The notes beneath the pieces are model-generated. The model saw nothing but the letters and a program-made list of their open reading frames with translations. It was not told the origin of the DNA and did no database searches. From sequence record PX068455.1: 64,000 nucleotides of DNA. One strand, given 5' to 3'. Of this stretch, positions 24,568 through 50,492 are shown piece by piece (the stretch's first letter is position 1; every line of letters begins with the position of its first letter). The DNA comes from a phage. A program made the position numbers and the translations under genes.

Positions 24568-26640
24568 TTATGAGAAGTCTGGCGGGACAACATCTTCTAC
24601 ATACCCTTTCAGAGCAACCTGCCCCATATGAAGCACGGTAGAATCTCTAGCGGTAACAGTGATGCTGTCAGACATTACTTGCGGGTATGCCCACACATAC
24701 TGTTTTACCTCAGGGTATCTATACTCTATAGTTGCCATGTTTCCGCAAATACATCTCCATAAAAATTCTTGGTAATTCCTAGTTGGGTCATAGCCATATA
24801 CCGGAGCAAGCTCTTTACTAGGAACGAACCCTGCAAGGTATTGTATTTCAGACGGTTGCCAACCTAACCTAACGATAGGTATGTTTACAGACTCTTTTGC
24901 CTTTTCAATACCTCCCTGCATCACCCAATCGTAGCACTCGGTGCAGAAGAAATCAAGAGCACCTGCTTCCTTTTTATATTGGTCAGCAAGGTTCAGCTTT
25001 TGTGTAAGCTCGGTTTCCATAATGGTTGGGAAAAACAGCAAAGCTGTCATCTGAGCTGATGCAGCGTGTGCCTTTACTGCCTTTGAAATAGCCGCAATAC
25101 GAGCGCCAAGCTTACCACGACAAAATGCCACATACTTGTCGTAAACACCGCCAGTTTTAGGATCGTCAATAGTCCCAATATCTAATGCATACTCACCTGT
25201 CTCATCATAAAACGCCTGCTTTGTAGGGTAATCATAAATACAAGGCCTACGAGTATCGGTATTGTACCACCACCACGGTTCACCAACCTGCATAATCACT
25301 GGCAGGTTGTTTCTCATAGCGGCTGATGCAAAATTCTTAAATACTGCAGTAAGGAAATTCATACCCTCTTCAATGGTTGGAGATAGGAGGTAGCTACAAG
25401 GTGTATACCCTGTTTTAGCGTAGTTATCGTTCCAGTCTCTTTGGGTCCATTCCAACGGGCAGGCATCGCTGAAAAGCTCAAAACTTACAGATTGCATAAC
25501 GTCGAAGTTATGTCGTTTGGCATTGTACATAAAATCATCATGCCATTTATAAGCTGCAGCGTTTAGCGCTCCTGTTCTGTTTATAGACCATTGGGTTCCG
25601 GACCATGTGTAGTCATAATAATGACTCATACCAACATAATGGTTTATGGTTCCGGTATATCCCAGACGCTTGATATTGTTCAACACCCTTAAAGGAGAGA
25701 CGTTCCACATATCGTCATATGCGGTGCAGATCCCAACGTCGTGCTCTCTCACCTGAATATTATTAAGTTGCATCATTTTCCAGCCTGTGTCTGGCTGAAG
25801 CAAATCTAGGCGCAACTCACACTCTACATTTTCCGTTCTCGGGTCTGTGCTATTACTTACCCAGTCTTTAGGCATGAGTGGTATTAAAATCCTTCTCACC
25901 TGCCGAGGATCAACACCCATCATGTTGTTGTTCTGGTCCATCCCGACGCAGTCCTCGAAATCAATATGAATTTCTGCAACATTCTTATCCTCTGAGATGC
26001 TGACAGCATATTGAGCTAAAGGAACATAGATGATTGTGCCATCAACAAGGTCTACAGTCATAATCATCTTTTCAGGAGTGGAGAAGTTGCTGGCGTTGGT
26101 TATTGACATTCTGAACCAAAGTTTGGTGTTTCTCATCTCATAGTGATCATCAAACCCAATACCGAAATGGTCATACTTGTCAACTGTTTCCCAAATGCAT
26201 CCAGCCATACCCCCATATGTTCTTGACACTAAACGGTTAATACAACAGTTGTTATCTGCAACAATACAGGTACTTTCAGTCTGCTGAGTAGTTGTAACCC
26301 AATATCTTGGGTGGAACATTCTCTCCTCGACAGTATCCCAAGATATCCTGTCAAGATTCTCATCTGAAACTATTGTACATTTCGCCCTTTGTGTCCCGAT
26401 CATCACCCCTTGAGATTTTGATGAAAACTCCATAAAGAAGCTTCTTGGCAACCTGTTGGGTAATTTGTCAACAATTTCCACCGGAATCTCAATACTGGTT
26501 GCCCCGACTGGGATAGTTACATCGCCCTCAACATGATCATAATCCCTACCAGGAACGGCAGTATCCTGAACTGTGCGGTAATGAAACTGCGCAGCCATTG
26601 TAGAGTAATCACGGTAAGGTTTAAAAACAGCTGTTGCCAT
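24568..26640 (-). CDS. virion structural protein, tail-fibre associated (function unknown)
   Basis: 690-aa ORF in the fibre cluster; no confident domain. Confidence 0.4.
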   Translation of the reverse strand: MATAVFKPYRDYSTMAAQFHYRTVQDTAVPGRDYDHVEGDVTIPVGATSIEIPVEIVDKLPNRLPRSFFMEFSSKSQGVMIGTQRAKCTIVSDENLDRISWDTVEERMFHPRYWVTTTQQTESTCIVADNNCCINRLVSRTYGGMAGCIWETVDKYDHFGIGFDDHYEMRNTKLWFRMSITNASNFSTPEKMIMTVDLVDGTIIYVPLAQYAVSISEDKNVAEIHIDFEDCVGMDQNNNMMGVDPRQVRRILIPLMPKDWVSNSTDPRTENVECELRLDLLQPDTGWKMMQLNNIQVREHDVGICTAYDDMWNVSPLRVLNNIKRLGYTGTINHYVGMSHYYDYTWSGTQWSINRTGALNAAAYKWHDDFMYNAKRHNFDVMQSVSFELFSDACPLEWTQRDWNDNYAKTGYTPCSYLLSPTIEEGMNFLTAVFKNFASAAMRNNLPVIMQVGEPWWWYNTDTRRPCIYDYPTKQAFYDETGEYALDIGTIDDPKTGGVYDKYVAFCRGKLGARIAAISKAVKAHAASAQMTALLFFPTIMETELTQKLNLADQYKKEAGALDFFCTECYDWVMQGGIEKAKESVNIPIVRLGWQPSEIQYLAGFVPSKELAPVYGYDPTRNYQEFLWRCICGNMATIEYRYPEVKQYVWAYPQVMSDSITVTARDSTVLHMGQVALKGYVEDVVPPDFS

Positions 26641-27337: not shown

Positions 27338-28828
27338 TTAAATAGTTTGTTGGAAAGTTATATTACTTTCGTCGAGGTCAAACACCTCGGTCATGTTCGC
27401 AACAATATCGTTTGTAGTGTAAGCTTCATCAGAAGCTCCTACTGGTTTAACTTGAATTACCAGTCTATTAAATCTGCCTATTGACACAGCAGCAGATGCA
27501 GCACCGACCAATTGGATATTATACAACGTATCTGCAACATCCAGTCCGTTAACAACCTGTAAAAGAGCCTCTACAATGGCATCTTTTTCGGTTGTGGAAA
27601 GCGCAGCACCAGAGTAGGTAATTCTTACATCCAGGCGGTAGGTATTTGCCTTGGAGTAATAAATTCTTTCAGTTTGACCGTCAGATGTAGTGACATCGTA
27701 GAAAATATTACCATAAGTCCTGTTCGTACAGGCTATAGTTTGGTAAAGTGCTTGGCAAATGTCCTCCGTTGCACCACCAAACACAACCACTTGGAACTTG
27801 TAAGGAGGTATACCTTTAGCATCAGTTTTATCGGTGTTGTTGGAGAACACTCTCACTTTCTCAACACCTTTCACCTCGCTTACAGCGCTAAGGATTGCAG
27901 GACGGGTAGCCTTAGATGTTAACTGTTTTGTGCTGGAAGCTCTTAAGCGATACTCTGAGTCTTTCTCAACATCTCTGCCCTCATTGAATCTTTCTCGGTT
28001 GGTAAGTTTGATAAATCCACTAGGGGTAGGTGACATTGTTGTCACGGTTTCTGCCTCTCTTGACAGCTCACCAGCCTCGTTAGCGATAACATCCAGGGTG
28101 ATAGTTCTTTCTCCTACAATCGGGGATACTCTGAAATCTACCCTGCTATTAAGTCCAACTTGATCAAGATTCGAATTGTACCCTATCCACAACGTTCCTG
28201 TCAACATATCGATCTGAATCAAATCGTCGTTCAACAGGGTTGTATTATCGACAATGAACTGCTTAATCTCTCCGTAAAAGCTTGGCAGATCAGAGGAGTC
28301 CAGAGCCTTATCTGTTAAAACCAGACTTTTTGTTTTGATACTTCCGTCTGTCTGGTTGGTAATTTGAAAGTTGTATTTCCCAATTCTTAGGTCTGGAGCG
28401 TTTATTCTGTGAGCAATAAGATTTCCAGCCACCTGCACATCGTTGCTAAGAACAAAGTTGCCACTGTCCAGCGTATAAGTTTTGGAATCATAAATCATAT
28501 TGTACGGCACAGTTGTGTTGATTGTCAACTGGCAGGTACCTGATGATTTAGAACGGCCTCTTCGGTAAATACCCTGCCTTCCAAGAAGCTCATCCAGGTA
28601 AATACCTTCTGCCCCATACAGCGTCTGTGATGCGTATACAGATGCTGCCATAAGAATAAGTTGATATTCTCGCTCGTTGAAAATAGTGGTCAGCTTATCT
28701 GCAACTGAGTTACTCTGTACGTTGAAGTTTTCGCCAAAAGCACGGATCAGGCTTTGCTTAGTTTCAACGATTAGGTCATTTAGGGTTGGTATAACGAAAC
28801 CAGCCTCTGTCAATCCATACTTAGCCAC
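27338..28828 (-). CDS. baseplate J-like protein
   Basis: 496 aa; N-terminal LTEAGFVIPTLNDLIVE...AFGENF and later ASQTLYGAEGIYLDELLG fit the Baseplate_J family pattern; GTG start with GGAGG RBS. Confidence 0.55.
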   Translation of the reverse strand: MAKYGLTEAGFVIPTLNDLIVETKQSLIRAFGENFNVQSNSVADKLTTIFNEREYQLILMAASVYASQTLYGAEGIYLDELLGRQGIYRRGRSKSSGTCQLTINTTVPYNMIYDSKTYTLDSGNFVLSNDVQVAGNLIAHRINAPDLRIGKYNFQITNQTDGSIKTKSLVLTDKALDSSDLPSFYGEIKQFIVDNTTLLNDDLIQIDMLTGTLWIGYNSNLDQVGLNSRVDFRVSPIVGERTITLDVIANEAGELSREAETVTTMSPTPSGFIKLTNRERFNEGRDVEKDSEYRLRASSTKQLTSKATRPAILSAVSEVKGVEKVRVFSNNTDKTDAKGIPPYKFQVVVFGGATEDICQALYQTIACTNRTYGNIFYDVTTSDGQTERIYYSKANTYRLDVRITYSGAALSTTEKDAIVEALLQVVNGLDVADTLYNIQLVGAASAAVSIGRFNRLVIQVKPVGASDEAYTTNDIVANMTEVFDLDESNITFQQTI

Positions 28829-28861
28829 GTCACTCCTCCGGTATGAAAATCTCTACAAGGT

Positions 28862-28890
28862 ATTTTACCAAATTTTGTAACAATAGTCAA
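28862..28890 (-). promoter_or_regulatory. sigma70-like promoter (TTGACT-17-TAAAAT)
   Basis: -35 at 28885-28890, -10 at 28862-28867 (minus sense); just downstream of terminator 28901-28924. Confidence 0.5.
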
Positions 28891-28900
28891 TCTGAGCATA

Positions 28901-28924
28901 AAAATAAACCCCGCCGAAGCGGGG
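28901..28924 (-). terminator. intrinsic terminator CCCCGC-UUCG-GCGGGG plus UUUAUUUU
   Basis: Same stem-loop as 2886-2901; follows stop of 28934..32773. Confidence 0.65.
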
Positions 28925-28933
28925 CTTTAAAGG

Positions 28934-31900
28934 TTAGTCGTGAGACTCGTTCCAAGGTCCTTGGAAACTAGAGTTAGAACGGCTTACCACAACAGTAGGA
29001 CAGGATATTGCGACCCCTGTTACAGAAGACGTTGACCATGGTGTGTAGATTTCAACAACAATATCTATGGTTTGTTCACCAAGACCCGTTATCCCTACTG
29101 CACACATACCGTTGTTGTCGTTTCCGTACTTCTTACCTGCAAGGATTTGATGTCCGGCTATCCAAACGTTAAGCTGGGAGCCAGACAAGGTTCCGTTTAG
29201 TTTAAAGAAGAATGTTACGTTCTTACCTTGTCCTGAAACGTTGTCCACATATCTCCACCTCCAACGGCAAACCCTCTGCTGTGAGTTATATACTGGAGGA
29301 CAGTCACCGTAGGTTCTGTGTGCAACTATTGCACCTTCGAACTGGTTAGCACGGATAACAGAAGCTTCTACACGCCCACGAAAGGTACCTCCGGTTGCAT
29401 CTATGGTGCCCCTAAAGCTACCATTATTGGCATAAACATCCCCACGGAAGGTACCACTAGTGGCGTTAACTGCCCCTGTGAAGTTACCAGAACTGGCGTT
29501 GATGTTGCCTTTCACCCACACATCCATAAATTGGGCGTGCCCGTTCTTGTTAATATACCAACCGTATTTATGGTACCCGTTGCCATCGTAGTTGTTTGAC
29601 GAAATTTCTTGTGCGATCTTGGCAGATGAAATCGTCCCGTTCTCTATAAAAGCATCTTTCAAGAACGCTTGGTTGTTCTTGATTGCGAAAGCAAGGGTTG
29701 CTGTTCCATTTCCAGGGTTGTATACCGCAAAATTGTTTGCACTAACCATGAAGTAGGATTGAACTTGGCCTCCAGACCCTTCCATCCCCAACTGGATACC
29801 TGCAACATATTTATTCCCTGCGGAGTCTACCTGTATTTTTGTGCCCCATTGAGCATTTACTTTACCCTCTAAGTCGGTTACAGCCTTAGATGTTGTAGCT
29901 ACTGCAGCCCTGATCTCGGACACATCCCCAACATCATCAATGATCTCCTGCTTAGCAACAGCAAGTTCTTGACGAATAGCTGACGCTGTGCCGTTGATAA
30001 GGTCCACAGTAGCTTTGTTGGTATCGGAAATTGTAGCATCCAGCGCTGTTTTTGTGGAAGTCAGTTTTCCATCCAAAGCATCAATCGCCTGCTTGTTGGT
30101 AGAAATCTCCCCACGTGCAGAAGTTATCTGCTCTGACAGTGCAGATGTTTTCTGATTCAACAAGTCAGTGGTGGCCTTGTTGGTATTGGCAATCAAGGTG
30201 TTGAGGTCAGTTTTTGCGGTGGTTATCTTGCCATCCAGGGTGGTATAGTTTTTAGATACCGTCGCGTTTGTCTGACTGATCTTTTGATCCAGAGTTTCAG
30301 ATGTCCTGTTCAAAAGATCCACAGTTGCCTGGTTAGTGCTCAAGATGCTTGCGTCAAGTTCTGTTCTCTGAGTATTGATCTTACCATCCAGAGTTTTATC
30401 TCCGGCTAAATACCCGCTCTCAACTCCCTCTATCTGCTCTACCAGCTCACCTTTGGCGGCAACCAATTTCTCATCTAAAGCCTCTGTCTTTTTGTTCAGA
30501 AGATCAGTAGTTGCTTTATTGGTTGTCTCGATCAGAGATGCCAGTCTGCCACTTTCAGTGTTCAGATCGTTGGTGAATTTGTTCTGTGCAGCAACAAGTT
30601 TCCTATCCAGCGCTGTAATGTTACCATTGACATCTTCAAACTTCTGAGTTGTTTCTGTAACTACCGCACCTATTCTGTCCCCAAGTTGTTGGAACGCTTC
30701 ATCTACCCTACCATCCATGTACCTGTTAAGTTCTGTGACACGATTTTCAACCTCTTCAATAGAGGAATCCAAAGTGCTCATCAACTCTTTATAAGTTTCT
30801 GTCTTTTTGAATTCAGCATCTATCTGAGGCATCAAATCCTCAATAGAGGTATAGCAGCGTGCAGCGCATTCTACAAACTGAGAGCTACCAAAAGCGTTTG
30901 TGGTTCGAATATACCAATAATAAACCTTATCGTTCTGCAGACCTTCAGATGTCCAAGTCGAACCAACACCCATACGGGTGGCTTCTGAAGTAACGGTTGC
31001 ATCACTAGTGTCTGGCAACCTTGTCATACCAGATGTCCAAAAGTCATACTGGGTGCTTACACTTGCTAAATCCCTGCTGTGTGGAATCAAGGTGATAGCA
31101 AAGTATCCTTGCTTAACCTCTACAGAAACAGGAGCTTCAGGTGCCTGAATGTTAAACTCGCAGTACGCTTCTGGAGATACACCACCTTTATAAGATGTTG
31201 CAACCACGGTTGCTGTGTATGACCCTTTGGTCAAGCCTTCTACTCTGACAAACTGCTCAACTGTCTGTGCTGTCCAAACAATCTCTCCGTTCTTTCTTAC
31301 CTGCACAATATTTTGAGCGTAAGTTCCAACGTTGTCCCAAGCCAAAACACCGTGAGTTACTTCCCCAGCTTGGAGAACGGAGTATCTGAAGTTTTGCGGT
31401 TGAGCTACACCGGATGGGGATATCGGAATATCTACATCGCCGGAATCCGGAAGTTGCCCTGTGGCATCATTCCACTCTTTAGCATCTTGACGAAGTTTTA
31501 CCTTGACACCGCCCTTTTTGGTGAACTCCCATTCAAGAACCCTCATTTCTTGGCCCACTATACCAATACTTGGGAGATTCATTGTAACGTAACGGCCAGG
31601 TTTAAATTTAAAACCTCGCATATTGCAGGTGACTTCAATAATCCTGCCAGCTCTAGCACGTCTTAAAAATATTGCAGAAACACGCTGAGCTTGATAAGGG
31701 CTGGTAACAAAGCGGTAGTCTATATCGATTATCTTTCTTTCTCCATCCTTCTCTATCCACTCTGGGACAAACACTGATGGAAAATCTGTTTCAGAATACC
31801 CTTTGGTCGGACTGGTGAATCTGCCAGTTATTGTGTTGGATCTTTTGTCAAACGAGGCTTCCGGATAGATCTTAACCTCACCACAGACACAGTCCTCACT

Positions 31901-32773
31901 CAGTGTCATTGTTGCCGGACCATAATATGCACCTACCAGCAGTCCATACTTACCAGCTACATAGCTGAGATCTGCACCACAAGCTTTCAGCATTTCTGCC
32001 ATAATACTTGCTGGGGCCTCATCCATATCGAACTCGCCATTAATGGTGTAACGGCGCTCACTAGTTCCGTCCGCGTTTCTTACCGCCTCATCGCATATGT
32101 TAGCAGCCTCCTTGAAGGACTCCCAGTTGATGGTTTCGTCAGGACATTTAAGGTACGTTCTTAAATAGTCTAGAATCACCAAGGCCGCGTTATTGGTATA
32201 CACCTCTTTACTGATACGAGGATCATAGCATTTTTTACCAACCTTGACGAGTGTAACGTTTGGCAACCCAAAAGGGAACTTGTTAGGGTCAAACCTGAAG
32301 CTGGCACGTAGCCAACTGATCCCTCTACCTATCATGTCTGGTGACCACGACGGGCAGTGTGTACCCATGAAAGGATCAGATGTTTTTCTGTCGTTATGTA
32401 GCTCCCACGATATCAAATCTCCATACGAGGAAATAGGATTACCGTCGATGAGTATATCTTCTATACCTTCCAGGGGATGATTGGCAAGAACAATAGCACA
32501 ATGGAGGGTCCTGTCCCTGTCCTGCTCCAAAAACGCAAGTAATCCAGATGTGCGTGTCTTCCCATACACTACAGAGCAAGGTGCAGCAGAAGATCTGAGA
32601 AGCTTTTGTCTATCTTGCTGACTTCTGTAAGATTTGTTGCCCTCAAAAATCTTATCCAGAGTTCTGGTGGTAACAGTGTTCAGGCTGTCAGCCAGAGCTG
32701 CCTTGGATGCGTTCCAGTCATAACTTGAAGATCTTGCAGAAGCAACGATGTTATCAATCATTGCAATTGGCAT
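28934..32773 (-). CDS. lambda gpJ-like host-specificity / central tail fibre protein with expanded coiled-coil repeats
   Basis: 1279 aa; matches to remembered lambda J signature blocks: NNAALVILDYLRT, PEAPVSVEVKQGYFAITLIPH, YYWYIRTTNAFGSSQFVE, YVAGIQLGMEG...FMVSANNFAVYNPGNG; about 330 aa of coiled-coil repeats inserted. Confidence 0.6.
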   Translation of the reverse strand: MPIAMIDNIVASARSSSYDWNASKAALADSLNTVTTRTLDKIFEGNKSYRSQQDRQKLLRSSAAPCSVVYGKTRTSGLLAFLEQDRDRTLHCAIVLANHPLEGIEDILIDGNPISSYGDLISWELHNDRKTSDPFMGTHCPSWSPDMIGRGISWLRASFRFDPNKFPFGLPNVTLVKVGKKCYDPRISKEVYTNNAALVILDYLRTYLKCPDETINWESFKEAANICDEAVRNADGTSERRYTINGEFDMDEAPASIMAEMLKACGADLSYVAGKYGLLVGAYYGPATMTLSEDCVCGEVKIYPEASFDKRSNTITGRFTSPTKGYSETDFPSVFVPEWIEKDGERKIIDIDYRFVTSPYQAQRVSAIFLRRARAGRIIEVTCNMRGFKFKPGRYVTMNLPSIGIVGQEMRVLEWEFTKKGGVKVKLRQDAKEWNDATGQLPDSGDVDIPISPSGVAQPQNFRYSVLQAGEVTHGVLAWDNVGTYAQNIVQVRKNGEIVWTAQTVEQFVRVEGLTKGSYTATVVATSYKGGVSPEAYCEFNIQAPEAPVSVEVKQGYFAITLIPHSRDLASVSTQYDFWTSGMTRLPDTSDATVTSEATRMGVGSTWTSEGLQNDKVYYWYIRTTNAFGSSQFVECAARCYTSIEDLMPQIDAEFKKTETYKELMSTLDSSIEEVENRVTELNRYMDGRVDEAFQQLGDRIGAVVTETTQKFEDVNGNITALDRKLVAAQNKFTNDLNTESGRLASLIETTNKATTDLLNKKTEALDEKLVAAKGELVEQIEGVESGYLAGDKTLDGKINTQRTELDASILSTNQATVDLLNRTSETLDQKISQTNATVSKNYTTLDGKITTAKTDLNTLIANTNKATTDLLNQKTSALSEQITSARGEISTNKQAIDALDGKLTSTKTALDATISDTNKATVDLINGTASAIRQELAVAKQEIIDDVGDVSEIRAAVATTSKAVTDLEGKVNAQWGTKIQVDSAGNKYVAGIQLGMEGSGGQVQSYFMVSANNFAVYNPGNGTATLAFAIKNNQAFLKDAFIENGTISSAKIAQEISSNNYDGNGYHKYGWYINKNGHAQFMDVWVKGNINASSGNFTGAVNATSGTFRGDVYANNGSFRGTIDATGGTFRGRVEASVIRANQFEGAIVAHRTYGDCPPVYNSQQRVCRWRWRYVDNVSGQGKNVTFFFKLNGTLSGSQLNVWIAGHQILAGKKYGNDNNGMCAVGITGLGEQTIDIVVEIYTPWSTSSVTGVAISCPTVVVSRSNSSFQGPWNESHD

Positions 32774-33210
32774 TAATACCTCCAGACATCAACAACAATA
32801 GAATCTTTCATGTCGAACATAAAGACCCCTTTATCACCTTTCGCCCAAATCTGGTTGTTCCAGAACACACCCGCGGTGAGTCCGTTCAGTCCTTCGAAAA
32901 TAACAATATCCCCACGCTGAACCTGTTTAGGAGTGTCCAGTCGAGTCATAAAGAAATCAAAAATAGTAGGCAGGTGTGTGGTTTTGAAATGAAGCATGCA
33001 CCATCTCTTGCTTTCCAACTCTGTTTTATACGTTCCTTCGAAGTTAGAAAGAAAATCTGTTCCGTATTGGGCATCAACACACTTAGCCGCAAAGGTGCAA
33101 CAATCGTGGAATCCCCATTCAAAAGGTATGGTGGCCTCTTCGTCAAACACTTTCCACAACCTTTCTTGCCAGTCCACTAGACGAGGATGTGTGCTCATTA
33201 AACCTCCCAA
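32773..33210 (-). CDS. NlpC/P60-like protein (lambda gpK-like C-terminal half)
   Basis: 145 aa; Cys in FEWGFHDCCTFAA and His in GDIVIFEGLNGLTAGVFW in papain-like order. Confidence 0.45.
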   Translation of the reverse strand: MGGLMSTHPRLVDWQERLWKVFDEEATIPFEWGFHDCCTFAAKCVDAQYGTDFLSNFEGTYKTELESKRWCMLHFKTTHLPTIFDFFMTRLDTPKQVQRGDIVIFEGLNGLTAGVFWNNQIWAKGDKGVFMFDMKDSIVVDVWRY

Positions 33211-33764
33211 ATGATCGGGCGGCTCGCCACCTGATCCACATATTTAAAAAATCTGTCGTTATCGTTTCTTGAGCTGTGGCTTTCCTCCGTGTACCGATAA
33301 GGAAAACCTCTTAACCAGCTGTTGAAGATGGAAGAGATGGATATGGACAAAGCACTATTCTCTCCTGTCTGGATAGCCATATCTGTTATAAGGCCGTCAA
33401 ACAAGCCATTAGTTGTGACAGGCAGACCATTCTCCATAGCGGTAATGTACAACGTGGCACGACAACCAGAATACTCCGTCTTCAGCAGATCACCCACATA
33501 CTTAGGATCAAACCCGTTCAATGTTGCTACCACAGATCCGAAGTTGGTGGCATCTTTCTCAGACACAGCGGTCAATGTTGCTGATCCGCCTATCCCTATA
33601 AAATGTTGACCCTCAATTACTACAACACCAGTGCCTGAGCACACCCTGACAGTGCCTGTCGGTAGCTCCAGCTTTGCAGCAATTAAGATCTCAACACCAT
33701 CAAGCTCTAGCTTTTCAAGAAATAAATTATCTAATGGCGCTCTGATCATCTTAGAAATCCTCAA
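33198..33764 (-). CDS. tail-tip assembly protein (gpL-position), putative
   Basis: 188 aa; assignment by position only. Confidence 0.3.
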   Translation of the reverse strand: MRISKMIRAPLDNLFLEKLELDGVEILIAAKLELPTGTVRVCSGTGVVVIEGQHFIGIGGSATLTAVSEKDATNFGSVVATLNGFDPKYVGDLLKTEYSGCRATLYITAMENGLPVTTNGLFDGLITDMAIQTGENSALSISISSIFNSWLRGFPYRYTEESHSSRNDNDRFFKYVDQVASRPIIWEV

Positions 33765-34341
33765 AGAAGTTGATAACTATATTATCACCTTTTTGCATAG
33801 CATCGACTTTTTGCTTAATTTTATAAATATCTCTGATATGGAACCTACCCTTCGGGGATTGAGTTATTATCTTCATAGTGTCCCCTGCGGCAATAGGTTT
33901 TCTAAGTCTTGGAGATATGCTTATAACAGCAGACCCAACACCATCACTACGCACTGGAGCTGTTACCACTTTCAATTCATCATTGACAGATATTTTATCC
34001 CCAGCTCTGGCTATGTCTCTGTTTGGCTCCCATCCGACCGTATTCAAAAAATCGTCGTTGCCAGTAGGCCCAAGGGCGATTGGCTCATTAGCTGTTACTG
34101 AGTGACCGTAAGTTTTAATGAGAAAGATGTTCCCATCTTTATACACCTGATCAACAAAGCTTTTAAGCTCTAGCAACTGTGACTCGCTGATATTGGAGAC
34201 CGTCAAAGTGCCTTTCCAGTTAGGTGTGGCATAGGTTACTTTTTGCGTCTTACCTGTAAACGGACTTTTAAACGTAACAATATCTGCCAGCAGCTCCAAT
34301 CTAATATCTGGAAGGTATCTAGGCCTTTCCCATAAAAACAT
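33751..34341 (-). CDS. tail-tip protein (gpM-like), putative
   Basis: 196 aa; LTVSNISESQLLELKSFVDQV..G..FL weakly resembles lambda gpM core; GGAGG RBS. Confidence 0.3.
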   Translation of the reverse strand: MFLWERPRYLPDIRLELLADIVTFKSPFTGKTQKVTYATPNWKGTLTVSNISESQLLELKSFVDQVYKDGNIFLIKTYGHSVTANEPIALGPTGNDDFLNTVGWEPNRDIARAGDKISVNDELKVVTAPVRSDGVGSAVISISPRLRKPIAAGDTMKIITQSPKGRFHIRDIYKIKQKVDAMQKGDNIVINFFEDF

Positions 34342-34372
34342 TGTGCCTCCAGGTTAAACAATCATGATAGTT

Positions 34373-34401
34373 ATTTTACCAGATTTTGAGTTAATACGCA
34401 A
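34373..34401 (-). promoter_or_regulatory. sigma70-like promoter (TTGCGT-17-TAAAAT)
   Basis: -10 at 34373-34378, -35 at 34396-34401 (minus sense); shares the AAAAT(C/T)TGGTAAAATA core with the 28862 promoter. Confidence 0.45.
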
Positions 34402-34405
34402 TACA

Positions 34406-34433
34406 AACAAAAAGCCCCCGCCGAAGCGAGGGC
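34406..34433 (-). terminator. intrinsic terminator GCCCUCGC-UUCG-GCGGGGGC plus UUUUUGUU
   Basis: UUCG tetraloop hairpin after the stop of 34441..38241. Confidence 0.55.
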
Positions 34434-34440
34434 AAAACAG

Positions 34441-37400
34441 TTACTTCAATTTCTCTTGCAATCCAGTAACAACCTCTGTCAATTTTTTAACCTGCTCCTC
34501 AAGGGCGGTTATTTTATCGTCCTGTTCCCTGCAAACCTGGACAAGCAAGCCTGTTACAGCTGCGTAGTCAACGTTATAGAACCTTTCCTCAGTCATTAAA
34601 GGAATGCCGTCTTGAGTAGGACCTTCTATTTCCTTCCTTTTCACGAAAGATCCTACTGCCTCTGGCAATGCTTCCATAACCTCTTGAGCAATCACGCCTG
34701 CATAAGGCATACCATTCTCTTTCAAGGTGTAGGTATAGCCTTTCATCTTTCTAATTGCTTCCAGAGCGTTAGGTATGACCTCTATGTTATCCTTCAGGTC
34801 CCTATCGGAACTTTGACTAACAGTAGTACATTCTACCGTGCCGTTGACAGCAAAATATCTTGATTTAGCCTCATCTGCCTTAGCACCACAGTGGAATACC
34901 CAGCTGGCGACTGTTGAGTTATCACTTATCTGAAACTCCAGCACATTCTTCCTATCTGCGCCATTACCCCAATAGTACAACCTACCTGTATTAGAAGGCA
35001 TGTTGGAAGTGTTGGTAACATCCGCACCACCACCTGTGTGTATTGTGAACTCCGGTTCAAGATTGGATCCTTGAGTTTTTAAAGTGATACCTTTACCACC
35101 AAGCTGCTGCCAATGGCCCCATGTGAAAACACCACCTATCGTTGTTCCATAACGCAGGAATTTTTCTCCAAGATATGTCGTATATTCCTGTACGCAACTC
35201 TCTGGAACGTTGGCATAGTTTCTGTAGACAACGAGAGTACCTGCCTGGGAGCATGGGTAGTTTTTATCAAGTGCGGCCTGAGCATTAGCCTCCTGATGAT
35301 AAAAACCCTCTCTATCCCCTTTGTAGTCGTTAAGGTCATTAGTCCCCAGCCCTTGACCACGGTGCTGAATAACTTTGTTCCATGCCCTATGGTTACCACC
35401 CTCGATAGATCTGGTGTATAGCTGATCAAGGCGACCAGCCATTTGGAAGGCATAGTTTCCAGAAAACGCCACAGACAGCCCACCAACAACCATCGAACCT
35501 TCAGGTCCGTTGACATTGCCTGCCATTATTTTAGAAGGGTTGTTAGGACCAAACTGGTTGTTCCAGTCTGCACCAGTATGGCATACAAAACCACCTGGAG
35601 CTGAGAAAGTACCATCCTTGTTGAAGTTGTAGAATCTATGAGCTGTGCCTACAACATCGCGAACAATAACTTGACCAGCTTCCGGAGTAGATCTGAACTC
35701 TGCCTGGCCTTTGAGACCAGCACCATTACCGCATTTAGAGGTAAACGTACCGTTAGTCAGATCCTCTGTCCCATCAGATGCACACTGGAATCCTGCATTA
35801 GAGAATAACGCCTTTCTAGGACTGCCGTAGCACAAATAGTCAAGACCGTCTGCCCATAGCTCGACTTTTGGCATATTCATTTTGCTCATCACAGCATAGC
35901 GTTCAGCAGTGCCTATATAGTGCCACTGTGTGCCGCCGCCAGTGTAGAACCCTGAAGTACCTTTAAAATCAACAATAGGTCTGGTATTGGTGTTGTTATC
36001 TCCAAGAATGGCAAGATTCAAATCTGCTGACTGAAGAGGTGCAACGAACTTAACCCCATCCTGATTGTCTGTTACAGAGCCAACCTGGTAATCTTGCTCT
36101 CTGGTAAACACTTCGACAACATTTCTACTTGCGTATATGCTGACAGGGAAAGCACGAGCCTCTACATAGAAAGCAACATACTCTTGTTTACCCCTTGTTG
36201 GAGCAACCATCCCAAGAAGTGCTTTTTCATTCTGGTAGAAATTTACTACCCCGTAGAAAGCGTCCCCTCTGTCTGTCCAACCACCAGTTCTATAGTGACA
36301 CTGTAAGGTAGCACAGTTCATAGGGTCACCGCCGGATGACGATCTGGTAACTATGGTAATATCAGTGCCAGTTGCTGGAGCATAGTACGGATCTGTTCTA
36401 ACGATAATTGGGTAGTATTTCCCATCTTCCATCCCTGCGGTTCTTGGCAGTGTTAAGAAGTCTTTTACACCTGCTGCTATAGGAACTTTGAACAGATTCT
36501 GAGCATCTGCTAAAGTTGTGGCTCCAGTACCACCTGCGGCGTGAGGTAAAGGTTCCCACTTGGCCTTCCGGTTGTTATAAACACCCCATTCCAAACTGCC
36601 GTTACCGGATTCGTCCATCCCGCCATCCCAGATAACCATCTTGGCGGCTTTCTTGGACCCCCAAAAGCCTCTTTCTGCTCCTGAACTACGGATCCACTCC
36701 CCAAGTCCCCAGTTTGTCAGCTGACCAGTAAGATCCCCAACCTGCATATATTTAGGACAGTCTAATACACCGTCCTCGCGGAAACCTAAATATCTATGAG
36801 TTTCAGATCCTTTTGCACCTTTGTGGAGGTGGATTGTCAACCAAGCCTTATTGTCGTTTCTTACCTCAGAATAGATCCTATAACCATGCTCAAGAATACC
36901 ATCAGTATTATATTTATCTCCATGGAGAATACCTGAGGCCGATTTAACATCTCCAGAGTATTGAGCTAAGTAAAGGTGCCCGAAGGCTGGCGAGTTGTTT
37001 TTACCAAGGCCGATATGAGATCTGAAAGTATCATCGTTACGAGGTCTGACCATCGGCTGCCATGCAGTCCACTGGTTTGTGTTGGCCTGATAGGTTCTCA
37101 AATACCAAACATCTACGTTAGAAAATGGATAGTATTCCTGACGACAACCTGTACCGCCGTTAGCATTGTTCTGCCAAACAATCAAGTGACCAGCACCAGA
37201 ACCTGCAGGGTAACCATTTGCCTCAGTTGCATAAGCAGTCATCGGCTGGTAGTATACGCCATCCTGATTACCAGTCAAGTTATTGATATTGAAATTTGGC
37301 TCAAGGGCTGCACGTTGCTTATAGAAAGCACCGATATTGATACGGACTCCAGCGGCATCTCTAGCCCCTGTGCCGCCTTGCTCTATAGCAAGAGGTTGCC

Positions 37401-38241
37401 ACGAAGCTGTTTGTTGGTTCCACATACCCCAACGGCCTGTTGCATCAAGCTGCAAGTACCCTGCCGTATTTAAATCATCTCCAGCACGGATAACTGTTCT
37501 TGTTGGGTTGTTTGCCTCTAGGCGTTTAAATTCATCACGAAGTGCTATTCTTTTCGTTGTTGCTACACCGTTGGTTACTGCAATGGTGTACATGGCTCCG
37601 GTGGTAGCGCCACGGAAAATACCATCAACAGTTGTAGTATCACGACGAGATACCACACCGTTCAGAAATTTTTCACCAGCTGCTACAGAAGGGTAGTTGG
37701 TAGTTCTTCCCTCTTCAATAACTGCAGGGCCAACAAAGTTATCGAGGTGAATAACATCGCCTACAGTGTGCACTGTACCAAAATCTACACGCTGTGCAAG
37801 TGCTTTGGCATCGTTAGCTGTCTGAACAGTAACATCCATTACATCCTGGACAGACTGCCCTTCGGCTGTCATGATCATAGATGCGCCAATGGTAGATTCC
37901 AGCTCCTCCCTTAATGACGGATCTGTATATACCATCCATGCAGCGTCAGTAATCCCACCATCGGAGTACGGTGAAGACAGTGCAGGAACAGTGTGTGGAA
38001 ATTCGCCTTTCCAACGTAGGTAGAGGTCTTCCTCTTCGAAGTAGGCAAAATCCATTGGGCCGTTTAACTTACCACCTTCCTTAAAGGAGATTACATGAGA
38101 AACAGTCCCATCAACATGGACAACATCGCCAATTTTTACACGACGGGTCAGGTCTGGTTGTTGAACAACCAGGTAATCATCCTCTGTCACTGCGGTAGTG
38201 GCAGGAAGAGATTCAATTCTGACAACTTTAATATCAGCCAT
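34441..38241 (-). CDS. tail fibre/tailspike with C-terminal intramolecular chaperone (peptidase S74-like) domain
   Basis: 1266 aa; C-terminal SDRDLKDNIE...GYTYTL...GVIAQEV...coiled coil matches the self-cleaving chaperone signature; N-terminal 100 aa homologous to 40876..41544. Confidence 0.65.
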   Translation of the reverse strand: MADIKVVRIESLPATTAVTEDDYLVVQQPDLTRRVKIGDVVHVDGTVSHVISFKEGGKLNGPMDFAYFEEEDLYLRWKGEFPHTVPALSSPYSDGGITDAAWMVYTDPSLREELESTIGASMIMTAEGQSVQDVMDVTVQTANDAKALAQRVDFGTVHTVGDVIHLDNFVGPAVIEEGRTTNYPSVAAGEKFLNGVVSRRDTTTVDGIFRGATTGAMYTIAVTNGVATTKRIALRDEFKRLEANNPTRTVIRAGDDLNTAGYLQLDATGRWGMWNQQTASWQPLAIEQGGTGARDAAGVRINIGAFYKQRAALEPNFNINNLTGNQDGVYYQPMTAYATEANGYPAGSGAGHLIVWQNNANGGTGCRQEYYPFSNVDVWYLRTYQANTNQWTAWQPMVRPRNDDTFRSHIGLGKNNSPAFGHLYLAQYSGDVKSASGILHGDKYNTDGILEHGYRIYSEVRNDNKAWLTIHLHKGAKGSETHRYLGFREDGVLDCPKYMQVGDLTGQLTNWGLGEWIRSSGAERGFWGSKKAAKMVIWDGGMDESGNGSLEWGVYNNRKAKWEPLPHAAGGTGATTLADAQNLFKVPIAAGVKDFLTLPRTAGMEDGKYYPIIVRTDPYYAPATGTDITIVTRSSSGGDPMNCATLQCHYRTGGWTDRGDAFYGVVNFYQNEKALLGMVAPTRGKQEYVAFYVEARAFPVSIYASRNVVEVFTREQDYQVGSVTDNQDGVKFVAPLQSADLNLAILGDNNTNTRPIVDFKGTSGFYTGGGTQWHYIGTAERYAVMSKMNMPKVELWADGLDYLCYGSPRKALFSNAGFQCASDGTEDLTNGTFTSKCGNGAGLKGQAEFRSTPEAGQVIVRDVVGTAHRFYNFNKDGTFSAPGGFVCHTGADWNNQFGPNNPSKIMAGNVNGPEGSMVVGGLSVAFSGNYAFQMAGRLDQLYTRSIEGGNHRAWNKVIQHRGQGLGTNDLNDYKGDREGFYHQEANAQAALDKNYPCSQAGTLVVYRNYANVPESCVQEYTTYLGEKFLRYGTTIGGVFTWGHWQQLGGKGITLKTQGSNLEPEFTIHTGGGADVTNTSNMPSNTGRLYYWGNGADRKNVLEFQISDNSTVASWVFHCGAKADEAKSRYFAVNGTVECTTVSQSSDRDLKDNIEVIPNALEAIRKMKGYTYTLKENGMPYAGVIAQEVMEALPEAVGSFVKRKEIEGPTQDGIPLMTEERFYNVDYAAVTGLLVQVCREQDDKITALEEQVKKLTEVVTGLQEKLK

Positions 38242-40875: not shown

Positions 40876-41544
40876 TTAGATAGCTCCTGCGATAATCAGT
40901 GCCCCGTACCAAGTTAACCCGTTGTCGTAGGTTTCCAACTTGAAAATATCTGTTGCACCAGCTGTAAATGTTAGGATAGGATCTCTTCCGTAGGACCATT
41001 TAACATTGTCAGGCCAATAGACTTTGTTGCCGCCAGAGGTCTGAGTAATGCATACGGTTATAGTTCTCGCCACCCCTTCAAGACCTTCTGTTTGATTTTC
41101 AAAAGAGATTGTGGTATTTGAAGTTAGTCGAACTTTAAAGGTATCCGCAACTTCAAGATCCATATCAAGCTGACCACCGATAGATCCGTAATCAACTATT
41201 CTGCCATAAGAAGTTGCAGCAAGCTCACCAAAAACAGACCATGCATTTGCAGACACACCCCCAGCACCCTCTACAGTGGAGTCTGGGAGGATTATTTTAG
41301 GATAATCCCCGTTCCACGTGTAGTAGCGCTTAGTCTCTGGGTCATAAGCAAAGTCCTTCTTGCTCTTAAGATAGCCACCCTCTGTGAAATAGACTATCTT
41401 AGTAATGCTAAGATCGTTGACAACATCGTCAATCTTAGCCTTTCTTGTCCCATCAGTCTGGTTGACAACCAAGAAGTCATCACTCAGGACTGTTTCTGCA
41501 TCTTCAAGATCTGGAATTGGTATTGTAGGATAAGCTACAGCCAT
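40876..41544 (-). CDS. tail fibre/tailspike N-terminal adaptor-domain protein
   Basis: 222 aa; DDFLVVNQTDGTRKAKIDDVV...FTEGGYLKSKKDFAY aligns with the N-terminus of 34441..38241. Confidence 0.5.
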   Translation of the reverse strand: MAVAYPTIPIPDLEDAETVLSDDFLVVNQTDGTRKAKIDDVVNDLSITKIVYFTEGGYLKSKKDFAYDPETKRYYTWNGDYPKIILPDSTVEGAGGVSANAWSVFGELAATSYGRIVDYGSIGGQLDMDLEVADTFKVRLTSNTTISFENQTEGLEGVARTITVCITQTSGGNKVYWPDNVKWSYGRDPILTFTAGATDIFKLETYDNGLTWYGALIIAGAI

Positions 41545-42282: not shown

Positions 42283-42960
42283 TTAGTGCGGTCCACTTGT
42301 CTCGCCATCAGGGCAAGAGTGGGTATGACCTTTATATTCTGCATAGAATGAATCCAAATCCACACCAGCAGCAGTTATAATTCTACCAGATGGGTCTATT
42401 GTGGCACCATTCATTCTGATATTTCCATCCACAGCAGCTCGCAAATTGGCAGCCCCGTTAGTGAAAGAAAACTCCCCGCTACTGTCGCACCGTAATGTCC
42501 CACCAGGTGTTTGAAGCTCAAAATCGCCAGAAGGTGTCAGTTTAAAATAAACCCTATCATTCCATAACTCTACGTTATCAGGATCGATCTGTAAAGCGTT
42601 TGAGTCTGAATGAACAGAGGTGATTGCCCACCCTGGAAACAGGCCGTGAGTTTGTTGATCGTCGTTATTGTTTTCATTTCTCTCTGAAAACTGCAATCCT
42701 ACAACATCCCCAGCCTTAATAGGAAGTGTTAACCTTGCCTTTCCGCTGTTTGCAGACATCACCTGAATTGGAACGTCATAGATAAGAGGGTATCTCTCCA
42801 CATCCCCGTCATCAAACGTGGTTTCAGCTATTGGCTGCACGGCTGCAGAAGGTATACTGTAGTCAACACTGACAACTCTGGCCCTGATACTGGTGTGATA
42901 GTCCCTCATTATTTTTTCTATAAAGGATCTTACAGCAGCATCTTTCCTATTTATTGCCAT
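42283..42960 (-). CDS. baseplate central spike, P2 gpV-like
   Basis: 225 aa; C-terminal EYKGHTHSCPDGETSGPH matches the gpV apex HTH..P.D..G.T motif. Confidence 0.6.
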   Translation of the reverse strand: MAINRKDAAVRSFIEKIMRDYHTSIRARVVSVDYSIPSAAVQPIAETTFDDGDVERYPLIYDVPIQVMSANSGKARLTLPIKAGDVVGLQFSERNENNNDDQQTHGLFPGWAITSVHSDSNALQIDPDNVELWNDRVYFKLTPSGDFELQTPGGTLRCDSSGEFSFTNGAANLRAAVDGNIRMNGATIDPSGRIITAAGVDLDSFYAEYKGHTHSCPDGETSGPH

Positions 42961-48469: not shown

Positions 48470-48512
48470 TTTATAGCATCCTTATTAGTCATGTTGTGCA
48501 CCATATTTGTGT

Positions 48513-49115: not shown

Positions 49116-50492
49116 TTATTCAGTCATTGCAACAGCATTGGTGGATTTAGAACCAACTTTGTCCAGAAGGACGTTGATCCGGATACGAACGAAGTGCAGG
49201 GCGTTGTTATACACCAGTTCTACTTTCACACCTTCCAGAACACGAGCAGCCAACTGATTGGTTGGGATTTCTGCACGTTTAGGAACTGTGATGATCGGGT
49301 CGTAGAATACATTATTGTCTTCGTCAAAACCTGTCAGGATCGCACCATTTTTAATGCCAGTATTGATCGGGTTGTTCATCAGAACAGACTTGATAACCGG
49401 AAGATCATCATCAGACATCTTCATGCTTAAGCCCATATTGGAGCGGCGATGCATGTACCCAAACATGGACTCTTCAGATCTGAACTTGATCCAGTGTGCA
49501 AAACGGATAGCGTCTGCATACTGACCTGAAGCACACTTACCTTCCCAGAAAGCGCCAACACCGTTAATCATTCTATAGAAGTTAACGTGGTTTTCCCAAA
49601 TCGCCATACGCTGAGTTAAAGTCAGGGATGGTGCAATAACGCCCGGCATCTGTTTTAAATGCAAGCTGTCGCCGTAAGACGGATCGTTGGATGCCATAGC
49701 GCCTACGATACCACCCTCTGGAAAATCTTTATCCGCACGAGGATCGTACATGCCGACACTATCATATTGTGCAGCCATCAGTTTGGTGGCGATGTTATTT
49801 TCTTTGCCAGTCACATCTTCTGCAGTAGAATAGACATGGAGCTTGTAGTTAGCCTGAGCCCACTTAGCACATGCTTCAATGTCGGTGTGGTCTTCATGGC
49901 ACAGGAAGTACCAATTATCACGCTCAGCATTGATCTTATCAACTACTGTAGAAGGTTTTTCAGAATTGGCGATATTTTTGATTGTATAGTTACCAGTATG
50001 ATAACCAACAGTGCAGTCACCAGTGATGGTAATAACACCTTCAGAAGCCTCTACAGTGATATCGTTCAAGTTATCATCTGCTTCGATTTTAGTCTTCATT
50101 GATTCTGCAATCTGAGTTGCACCTGTTCCACCAGAGATAGGTACTATCAGAGAAGTATTGTAGCCACCTTTTGCAATGGTCATTACGACATCGGTATCAG
50201 CTGCGGCAGCAATACCTTTAAAATCTACAGTGGTTTTTTCTTTAGCCTGTCTGCCGATCATAACGTATTGTGGAGGGAATACACCGCCGAAAGCTTTTGC
50301 TGCAAACTCATACGCTGCAGAGCCTTGTGCGAAACCGTCTTCCACCATCTGGTCCAGCTCCGCATACACGCGAGCTCGCTCAGTAAAGTTGTTGTGGATA
50401 GCGATGAACAGCGGGGTTTCGAAACCTACAGTGTCAATAGGCTGGGTTCCGAGGTTAACTGTAACATCTACCACTTTATCTAAATATGGCAT
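49116..50492 (-). CDS. tail sheath protein (putative)
   Basis: 458 aa; C-terminal IWENHVNFYRMINGVGAFWEGK resembles the conserved sheath motif; followed by a tube-sized ORF. Confidence 0.55.
   Translation of the reverse strand: MPYLDKVVDVTVNLGTQPIDTVGFETPLFIAIHNNFTERARVYAELDQMVEDGFAQGSAAYEFAAKAFGGVFPPQYVMIGRQAKEKTTVDFKGIAAAADTDVVMTIAKGGYNTSLIVPISGGTGATQIAESMKTKIEADDNLNDITVEASEGVITITGDCTVGYHTGNYTIKNIANSEKPSTVVDKINAERDNWYFLCHEDHTDIEACAKWAQANYKLHVYSTAEDVTGKENNIATKLMAAQYDSVGMYDPRADKDFPEGGIVGAMASNDPSYGDSLHLKQMPGVIAPSLTLTQRMAIWENHVNFYRMINGVGAFWEGKCASGQYADAIRFAHWIKFRSEESMFGYMHRRSNMGLSMKMSDDDLPVIKSVLMNNPINTGIKNGAILTGFDEDNNVFYDPIITVPKRAEIPTNQLAARVLEGVKVELVYNNALHFVRIRINVLLDKVGSKSTNAVAMTE

Follow-up and report, generated by a model that had tools for sequence, protein, structure and literature searches.

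Why a phage with a contractile tail should carry genes for a tail tip of the lambda type is the question raised by positions 28934-34341 of a 64,000-nucleotide stretch of phage DNA (record PX068455.1), the whole of which is called the window here. The region has 100% identity to Escherichia phage ECP2303 and 96.5% DNA identity to phage rV5, and the window belongs to Vequintavirus, the rV5-like myoviruses with a contractile tail and E. coli as host. Its four open reading frames (ORFs) are homologues of rV5 gp37, gp38, gp39, and gp40; they are called by these names here and, together, the cassette. The four genes match, in order and in sequence, tail-tip genes of Queuovirinae siphoviruses, and the explanation favored here, in which our confidence is evenly divided, is that a captured tip complex of the siphovirus or gene transfer agent (GTA) type is reused as an accessory fiber and not as a second conduit for DNA.

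The similarity to J has been known since the 2008 annotation: the GenBank notes of rV5 already compared gp37-40 with proteins of a Yersinia siphovirus, PY54; RefSeq labels gp37 of rV5 "central tail fiber J" and its gp40 "distal tail protein"; and in the rV5 paper gp37 is marked as COG4733 and counted among the fiber-like proteins. The function is unexplained in the literature searched, where no paper explains or locates gp37-40, treats them as a unit, names a donor lineage, or notes lost segments. The parts come from known families; what is new is their context and the specific remodeling.

An earlier note on this DNA described the gp37 product as similar to lambda J along its length, and profile searches bear this out. 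The Pfam family Phage_Tail_Tip (PF09327, formerly DUF1983) scores 132 bits against a cut-off of 22, and Ig_J_second scores 105 bits (cut-off 27), while Ig_J reaches 24.7 bits, under its cut-off of 29. PHROG 31, "central tail fiber J", matches with an E-value of 1e-163 and spans residues 143-1118. Among PDB sequences, the chains of lambda gpJ are matched (8iyk, E 2e-28), with gpJ residues 666-838 and 843-991 aligned, that is, the immunoglobulin-like (Ig) and tail-tip domains within gpJ 666-991. Equivalence to lambda J itself does not follow, as the score with the NCBIfam model lambda_TipJ is 153 bits, where the curated cut-off is 1950. Phage-tail_3, which the earlier note had proposed as a check, stays under threshold in a relaxed Pfam scan (13 bits against 23).

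The putative hub region of gp37 (residues 48-500) has 56-57% identity to the J protein of Seuratvirus and more distant similarity to many phages of 40-60 kb and, by tblastn, to T5 pb3. Lambda J passes directly from its Ig domains to the tip domain, whereas gp37 has approximately 300 amino acids of coiled coil between them. This stalk has weak matches to coiled-coil families and to P22 gp26, and contains four degenerate repeats of approximately 50-60 residues each, visible only at the protein level; Tandem Repeats Finder reports no meaningful repeat in the gp37 DNA. Alleles of 1199, 1279, and 1381 amino acids exist in the genus, with differences almost confined to the region 650-950, while the hub and distal domains are 96-100% identical between length alleles. 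The last 160 residues are found by tblastn in Vequintavirus records at 82-100% identity (at least 90% in all but three); outside the genus there is one weak match of 30%, in a siphovirus.

The ORF preceding J was thought to be NlpC/P60-like, as is gpK of lambda, and gp38, at the position of gpK or RcGTA g14, does belong to DUF6950 and is predicted to have this fold: its AlphaFold2 (AF2) model, with a predicted local distance difference test score (pLDDT) of 80, matches MepS, LytE, and RipD in Foldseek with probability 1.0 and template modeling (TM) scores of approximately 0.55-0.6. RipD, among the best of these matches, is non-catalytic. In five aligned sequences a DCC motif is invariant and no histidine is, and because of this lack of a conserved histidine canonical catalysis by gp38 is doubtful. 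The gp39 homologue matches PHROG 2048, labeled "tail protein". Its AF2 model has a moderate pLDDT of 66 (core 70-87) and is matched by Foldseek, with probability 1.0 and TM scores of 0.4-0.57, to pb3 of T5/DT57C and to chains of the JBD30, Chi, RcGTA (6tba_7A, g13), and R4C hubs; the part matched is the attachment domain, with its tube-like fold, of hub proteins from siphoviruses and the GTA. The gp40 homologue matches PHROG 1302, "distal tail protein" (Dit), with an E-value of 3e-50. The earlier note had placed two ORFs at the positions of lambda gpL and gpM; gp39 stands at the position of gpL or RcGTA g13, but membership in the gpL and gpM families is not supported. Relaxed Pfam and NCBIfam scans of the cassette find no gpM, gpL, gpK, or gpI family, including no match to the gpK MPN domain, and an equivalent of gpI is absent. 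PDB sequence searches with gp38, gp39, and gp40, singly or as profiles, return nothing significant. Word-indexed homologue searches with gp38 or gp39 alone return close relatives only, and distant homologues of these two were reached only from an alignment that had siphoviral homologues as its seed. Translation of gp38 and gp39 probably starts at ATG codons (33198 and 33749, respectively), each with GGAGG upstream, and not with the longer TTG frames; Shine-Dalgarno sites are present on all four genes. In phage BP9 (locus L010, 7071-7623) gp39 is annotated as shorter (148 amino acids), with a gap of 105 bp between it and gp40, perhaps because the start was called differently or because of an indel at this place.

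The same four genes are found in siphoviruses of E. coli. In Seuratvirus SLUR26 and Nonagvirus JenK1 the order is tape measure protein (TMP), Dit (196 amino acids), "tail protein" (194), DUF6950 (144), and J (approximately 1040), and the cassette is collinear with it at 32% identity for gp40, 39-40% for gp39, 43-44% for gp38, and 49-54% for gp37. The siphoviral J proteins closest to gp37 are those of these Queuovirinae genera, with genomes of approximately 60 kb. The likeness covers the number, order, and nearly equal sizes of the genes as well as the layout of J, with a putative hub, two Ig domains, a coiled coil, and a Tail_Tip domain. A scan of IMG/VR gives 80 loci; the four-gene order is kept in all 80, and wedge genes are nearby only in the 3 Vequintavirus loci. 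In the 58 loci with upstream sequence, Vequintavirus included, the frame directly before the Dit-labeled gene is usually long (median approximately 1000 amino acids), as for a TMP. Vibrio phage vB_VibM_83AMN, considered as a second myovirus with the cassette, is rejected since it is a 58-kb Queuovirinae genome.

There are also differences from the Queuovirinae cassette. The cassette of the window sits in a myovirus genome with no tape measure or tube gene adjacent; the sole tape measure gene belongs to the myovirus tail module, at a distance of 11 kb. The coiled coil of gp37 is approximately 200 amino acids longer than that of the Seuratvirus J and variable in length, and the last 160 amino acids are genus-specific. 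No receptor-binding protein (RBP) locus follows gp37, whereas the donor group has its specificity genes immediately after gpJ. The siphoviral J is hydrophobic over its first 46-51 residues in SLUR26, JenK1, and 83AMN and in each of the 77 IMG/VR loci from outside Vequintavirus; its best Kyte-Doolittle window of 19 residues scores 1.44-2.54 with 1-3 charged residues (median 2). In both myoviral lineages of gp37 (the second is described below) this segment keeps the MPxA start and is polar, with a best window of 0.31-0.39 and 9-10 charges (0.31 and 10 in the window studied here). A further loss is in gp39, which lacks the C-terminal tail GSKKDAPGFxY that is near-invariant in alignments of 28 siphoviral and prophage homologues.

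What the N-terminal segment of J may do in an intact tip is suggested by RcGTA (PDB 6TBA), in which g12 (distal tail), g13 (hub), g14 (a 150-amino acid peptidase needed for tail formation), and g15 (megatron) have the same functional order (PMC7296036), although no sequence identity to the cassette proteins is detectable. The gp39 model matches the g13 chain, and g14 and gp38 are of one size class and have the NlpC/P60 fold in common. In the megatron, the iris that closes off the tail channel is made up of residues 1-46, for which insertion into the outer membrane, as a helix lining a pore, has been proposed (PMC7296036). The hydrophobic segment of approximately 46 amino acids in siphoviral relatives of gp37 holds the position of this iris or penetration domain, and by analogy the segment lost from gp37 would correspond to it in both position and length. 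Compared with g13, gp39 is an attachment domain only and has 2 cysteines, and therefore would have no four-cysteine Fe-S site.

The genome around the cassette encodes a complete contractile tail of its own: sheath, tube, tube initiator, hub, HxH spike, sheath initiator, and a pair of wedge proteins. The earlier note's assignments of a sheath and of a gpV-type spike hold, both matching chains of phiTE and phi92 (Table 1), and further contractile baseplate genes do lie alongside, among them a wedge subunit directly downstream of the cassette. Pfam finds a tube, a chaperone, a tape measure, a Dit_like tube initiator, and a plug in the window; for the sheath initiator, the family is on record in a 92%-identical homologue from a sister lineage. 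The window resembles the baseplates of phi92 (PMC13450770) and phiTE (PDB 9CUY) in its sheath, spike, and wedge proteins, with the expected Pfam families for tube, tape measure, tube initiator, and plug. The phi92 and phiTE papers include no J-, Dit-, or NlpC/P60-type component among the baseplate or fiber proteins, and relative to these baseplates the cassette is a Vequintavirus-specific addition.

Table 1. Features of the cassette, its flanks, and the contractile tail genes, with positions in the window
Feature	Positions	Strand	Basis or remark
gp37 homologue, J-type, 1279 aa	28934-32773	-	Pfam, PHROG, PDB sequence matches
gp37 residues 1-47, polar N-terminal segment	32633..32773	-	hydropathy compared with siphoviral J homologues
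gp37 residues 48-490, putative hub (Tal/BHP-like) region	31304..32632	-	PHROG 31 and 5616; Seuratvirus J similarity
gp37 residues 493-652, Ig_J and Ig_J_second	30818..31297	-	Pfam; aligned with lambda J residues 666-838
gp37 residues 653-955, coiled-coil-like stalk	29909..30817	-	proline-free, four N[KQ]AT[TV]DL[LI]N repeats
gp37 residues 957-1097, Phage_Tail_Tip domain	29483..29905	-	132 bits; aligned with lambda J residues 843-991
gp37 residues 1120-1279, genus-specific distal domain	28937..29416	-	tblastn
gp38 homologue, 141 aa, DUF6950, predicted NlpC/P60 fold	32773..33198	-	Pfam; AF2 and Foldseek
gp39 homologue, 183 aa, hub "attachment-domain" protein, predicted tube-like fold	33198..33749	-	PHROG 2048; AF2 and Foldseek
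gp40 homologue, 196 aa, labeled distal tail protein (Dit)	33751..34341	-	PHROG 1302
Intrinsic-terminator-like hairpin GCCCTCGCTTCGGCGGGGGC and T-run	34414..34433	-	after gp41-like gene, upstream of cassette
Extended -10 promoter-like motif TGGTAAAATA	34372..34381	-	upstream of gp40
Intrinsic-terminator-like hairpin, GC-rich, and T-run	28906..28927	-	directly after gp37 stop codon
Promoter-like motif TGGTAAAATA	28861..28870	-	upstream of wedge gene; second terminator-promoter unit
Baseplate wedge subunit (rV5 gp36), directly downstream of cassette	27338..28828	-	PHROG 6; phiTE Wedge 2 (E 2e-158); phi92 gp145 (E 1e-55)
Central spike, HTHSCPDG apex	42283..42960	-	matches phiTE spike and phi92 gp138
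Tail sheath	49116..50492	-	phiTE sheath chain (E 5e-144), phi92 sheath chain (E 2e-48)

The cassette is restricted to one branch of the rV5-like phages. The wedge gene of PVP-SE1 (Seunavirus) is directly next to the gp41-like gene, and in Av-05 the wedge genes come directly after the sheath-initiator gene, with the cassette absent from both places; tblastn of the 35-kb loci of PVP-SE1, Av-05, and Phapecoctavirus Schickermooser finds no homologue of gp37-40, and the virion gene list of Septuagintavirus W70 has no genes of these types. Records matching positions 28934-34341 number 119, nearly all of them full length and mostly named as Escherichia phages, and the genus Vequintavirus is stated for those whose taxonomy was inspected. 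Eighteen GenBank entries named "Campylobacter phage" (MG0656xx; host Campylobacter jejuni) have 91-99% identity to the region, and some are partial genomes (e.g., A116, 59.5 kb); these look like mislabeled or contaminating coliphages. A sister lineage with tail proteins 78-92% identical to those of the window has the cassette in the identical place. It consists of metagenomic contigs and one contig of an E. coli assembly (L012 to L015: ENA ERZ16268152 scaffold_272, Logan ERR4623478_835, ENA ERZ17292902, and NCBI GCA_002973135.1 JZQG01000004.1), and was not among the matches in a collection of 50,697 phage records. The copy within the E. coli genome assembly is a 74-kb contig. In L013 (2042-4634) two overlapping ORFs of 750 and 124 amino acids make up the gp42 homologue; the gene may be frameshifted or a pseudogene, or the contig may be misassembled.

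Between the window and the sister lineage, synonymous divergence (dS) is saturated, at more than 1.4 wherever computable; it was not computable for six genes, including gp37, gp38, and gp40. Nonsynonymous divergence (dN) is 0.115 for gp40, 0.081 for gp39, and 0.155 for gp37, compared with 0.05-0.15 for the spike, sheath initiator, wedges, and fibers; gp38, at 0.385, is the fastest in the cassette. Relative to rV5, the cassette proteins are 98-99.5% identical at the 96.5% DNA identity given above, and gp37 is intact in all five of the genes translated. Because dN resembles that of baseplate genes, dS is saturated, and the proteins are conserved above the DNA, the cassette is under purifying selection and appears to be functional and vertically inherited after a single capture.

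The cassette is also bracketed by regulatory signals. A terminator separates it from the upstream gene, a gp41-like tailspike (Tail_spike_N and Peptidase_S74), and on each flank the terminator is followed by TGGTAAAATA; because of this unit on each side, the cassette is predicted to be transcribed on its own, from signals that belong to the phage. Exact copies of TGGTAAAATA in the window number four (28861, 34372, 48512, and 52033), all intergenic and upstream of minus-strand structural genes, and at one mismatch there are 18 matches where 5.8 are expected. The copy at 48512 precedes the gp51 homologue, at the place of the sigma70-type promoter P51 annotated in rV5, and TGGTAAAATA is probably the structural-gene promoter consensus of the phage. 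The sister lineage has the same terminator-promoter arrangement with TGATAAAATA in place of TGGTAAAATA, PVP-SE1 uses TGATAAAATA as well, and the hairpin at 34414..34433 is kept in sister-lineage loci L012 and L015. Full-length alignments can be made between the intergenic regions of the two flanks, and between these and the one junction that PVP-SE1 has where the cassette is absent. A duplication made by the insertion was considered for the flanking units and is not separable from a shared regulatory consensus, because TGGTAAAATA is also used elsewhere in the window.

Taken with the contractile genes, these results separate the two halves of the suggestion that the locus is a chimeric or dual adsorption apparatus. 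The chimeric half stands, on collinear identity of 32-54% to the Queuovirinae and on the absence of the cassette from PVP-SE1, Av-05, and Phapecoctavirus. The other half, a central fiber or dual adsorption apparatus, is regarded as unlikely: there is no second TMP or tube, the hydrophobic N-terminus of J is lost, and the axis is held by the spike.

The sequence of events that would best account for the locus begins with an ancestor of the genus Vequintavirus, which would have captured the four-gene cassette from a Queuovirinae-like siphovirus into the terminator-promoter junction upstream of the wedge gene, where it would be expressed from the phage's own promoter type. The complex would assemble as in the donor, with a J trimer on hub and Dit-labeled proteins and the NlpC/P60-fold protein helping as an assembly factor, but would no longer terminate a DNA-conducting tube. 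With its long variable stalk and conserved genus-specific distal domain, it would serve as a low-copy accessory adhesin on the contractile baseplate, while DNA delivery would be left to the sheath, tube, tube initiator, hub, and iron-binding HxH spike. An accessory adhesin is proposed because the tape measure is missing, the plug segment of J is polar, and the gp39 tail is lost, while the stalk and distal domain are carried; losses of this kind fit the expectation for a complex that no longer caps a DNA-filled tube. The assembly, virion location, adhesin function, and receptor of the complex are what we infer from this combination. In mass spectrometry (MS) of rV5 virions, gp37 is represented by 4 peptides and 5 spectra, with one convincing fully tryptic peptide.

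Several points weigh against this explanation. The MS supplement for rV5 virions lists no peptides of gp38-40, and the data are shallow, with 15 spectra for the sheath and non-tryptic identifications among the low-scoring entries. Genome-wide host screens find that rV5-like phages depend on the NGR glycan and on sugars of the lipopolysaccharide (LPS) core, with no outer-membrane protein named, so no receptor is attributable to the cassette; any ligand of gp37 would therefore be non-essential on K-12, essential to the host, or a glycan. It is not obvious where, at the six-fold periphery of the wedges, a trimeric hub sitting on a hexameric ring would dock. Retention of the whole hub, the Dit-labeled protein, and the NlpC/P60 gene would seem to exceed what a simple fiber needs, and the sister genera do without the cassette. 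Finally, the designation of gp40 as Dit comes from the PHROG label and synteny; gp40 has no Pfam match, and no PDB sequence match even with a profile. PDB sequence searches also find no Vequintavirus structure.

One alternative, which corresponds to the dual apparatus of the earlier note, is an axial arrangement, in which the Dit-labeled protein, hub, and J would be stacked on the tail axis below the baseplate as a true central fiber. The HxH spike would then lie in the lumen that is held by the TMP C-terminus and iris in siphoviruses, and would be uncapped when receptor binding triggers opening of the hub. Every ring-forming part is retained in the cassette, and the elements that are changed, the N-terminus of J (lumen-lining in RcGTA) and the C-terminus of gp39, could suit a new polar occupant of the lumen. 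Three copies of J per virion would also fit the weak MS signal, and hubs of the donor type are built to open upon receptor binding, as in the RcGTA model (PMC7296036). However, the axial position is already occupied by a spike of the P2 gpV/phi92 gp138 type, the baseplates of phi92 and phiTE, which lack the cassette, show this spike inside the wedge pin domains with no docking surface reported, a central fiber with a stalk of approximately 300 residues would separate the spike from the membrane, and micrographs of rV5 mention five to six thin fibers of 70 nm, not one. This arrangement is regarded as unlikely, if the least so among the alternatives, and it is about as improbable that a siphovirus tip complex on the myovirus axis acts as a hybrid trigger, with siphovirus-style opening licensing sheath-driven puncture.

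Another alternative is that the cassette product acts outside the infectious virion, either during infection of the cell or once it has lysed; it might, for instance, be a decoy for co-infecting Queuovirinae-type siphoviruses, interfere with them, or block their receptors. This would explain why gp38-40 are undetected and gp37 is barely detected in rV5 virions; the nearest relatives of the cassette are from E. coli siphoviruses of the same niche, and no receptor dependence has been attributed to it. On the other hand, the cassette lies inside the late structural operon and has a promoter of the structural-gene type, one gp37 peptide of high quality comes from purified virions, exposed fibers typically combine, as here, a stalk of polymorphic length with a conserved distal domain, and no precedent was found in the literature searched, leaving such a role unlikely. 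A decaying hitch-hiker, that is, a recently acquired and functionless siphovirus fragment, is very unlikely, since absence from all sister genera examined and evolution of gp38 three to four times faster than its neighbors are set against a gp37 intact in all five translations, full length in most of the 117-119 matching records, retention in a lineage with saturated synonymous sites, a dN equal to that of essential baseplate genes, and Shine-Dalgarno sites on every gene.

The gp41 (34441-38241) and gp43 (40876-41544) homologues have in common the N-terminal domain Tail_spike_N (Ackermannviridae TSP1/Gp66), which suggests a branched tailspike attachment as in CBA120-type phages; the Peptidase_S74 of gp41 is an intramolecular-chaperone domain. 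For gp34 (24568-26640) the homologue in the sister lineage is recorded with NCTSP_N and TIM-barrel_NCTSP, domains of the N4 non-contractile sheath protein type. A 2026 preprint links an N4-like tail-fiber domain to NGR glycan binding in Vequintavirus, and the domains of gp34 may be that domain.

The rV5-like phages are among the most commonly isolated phages of E. coli and are candidates for therapy, yet which of their genes build which fiber has been stated to be unclear (PMC8594841), and in phi92, which does not have the cassette, one fiber is still unassigned after cryo-EM. The gp37-40 proteins are a discrete, genus-specific unit of four co-inherited proteins with a named donor lineage, and the comparison with that lineage shows which functional elements are lost when a tube-terminating tip complex is moved to a contractile tail. 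Interest would be greater still if the axial arrangement were true. The cassette offers a case, found in nature, of a module exapted from one tail type to another, and it provides a defined target for host-range engineering.

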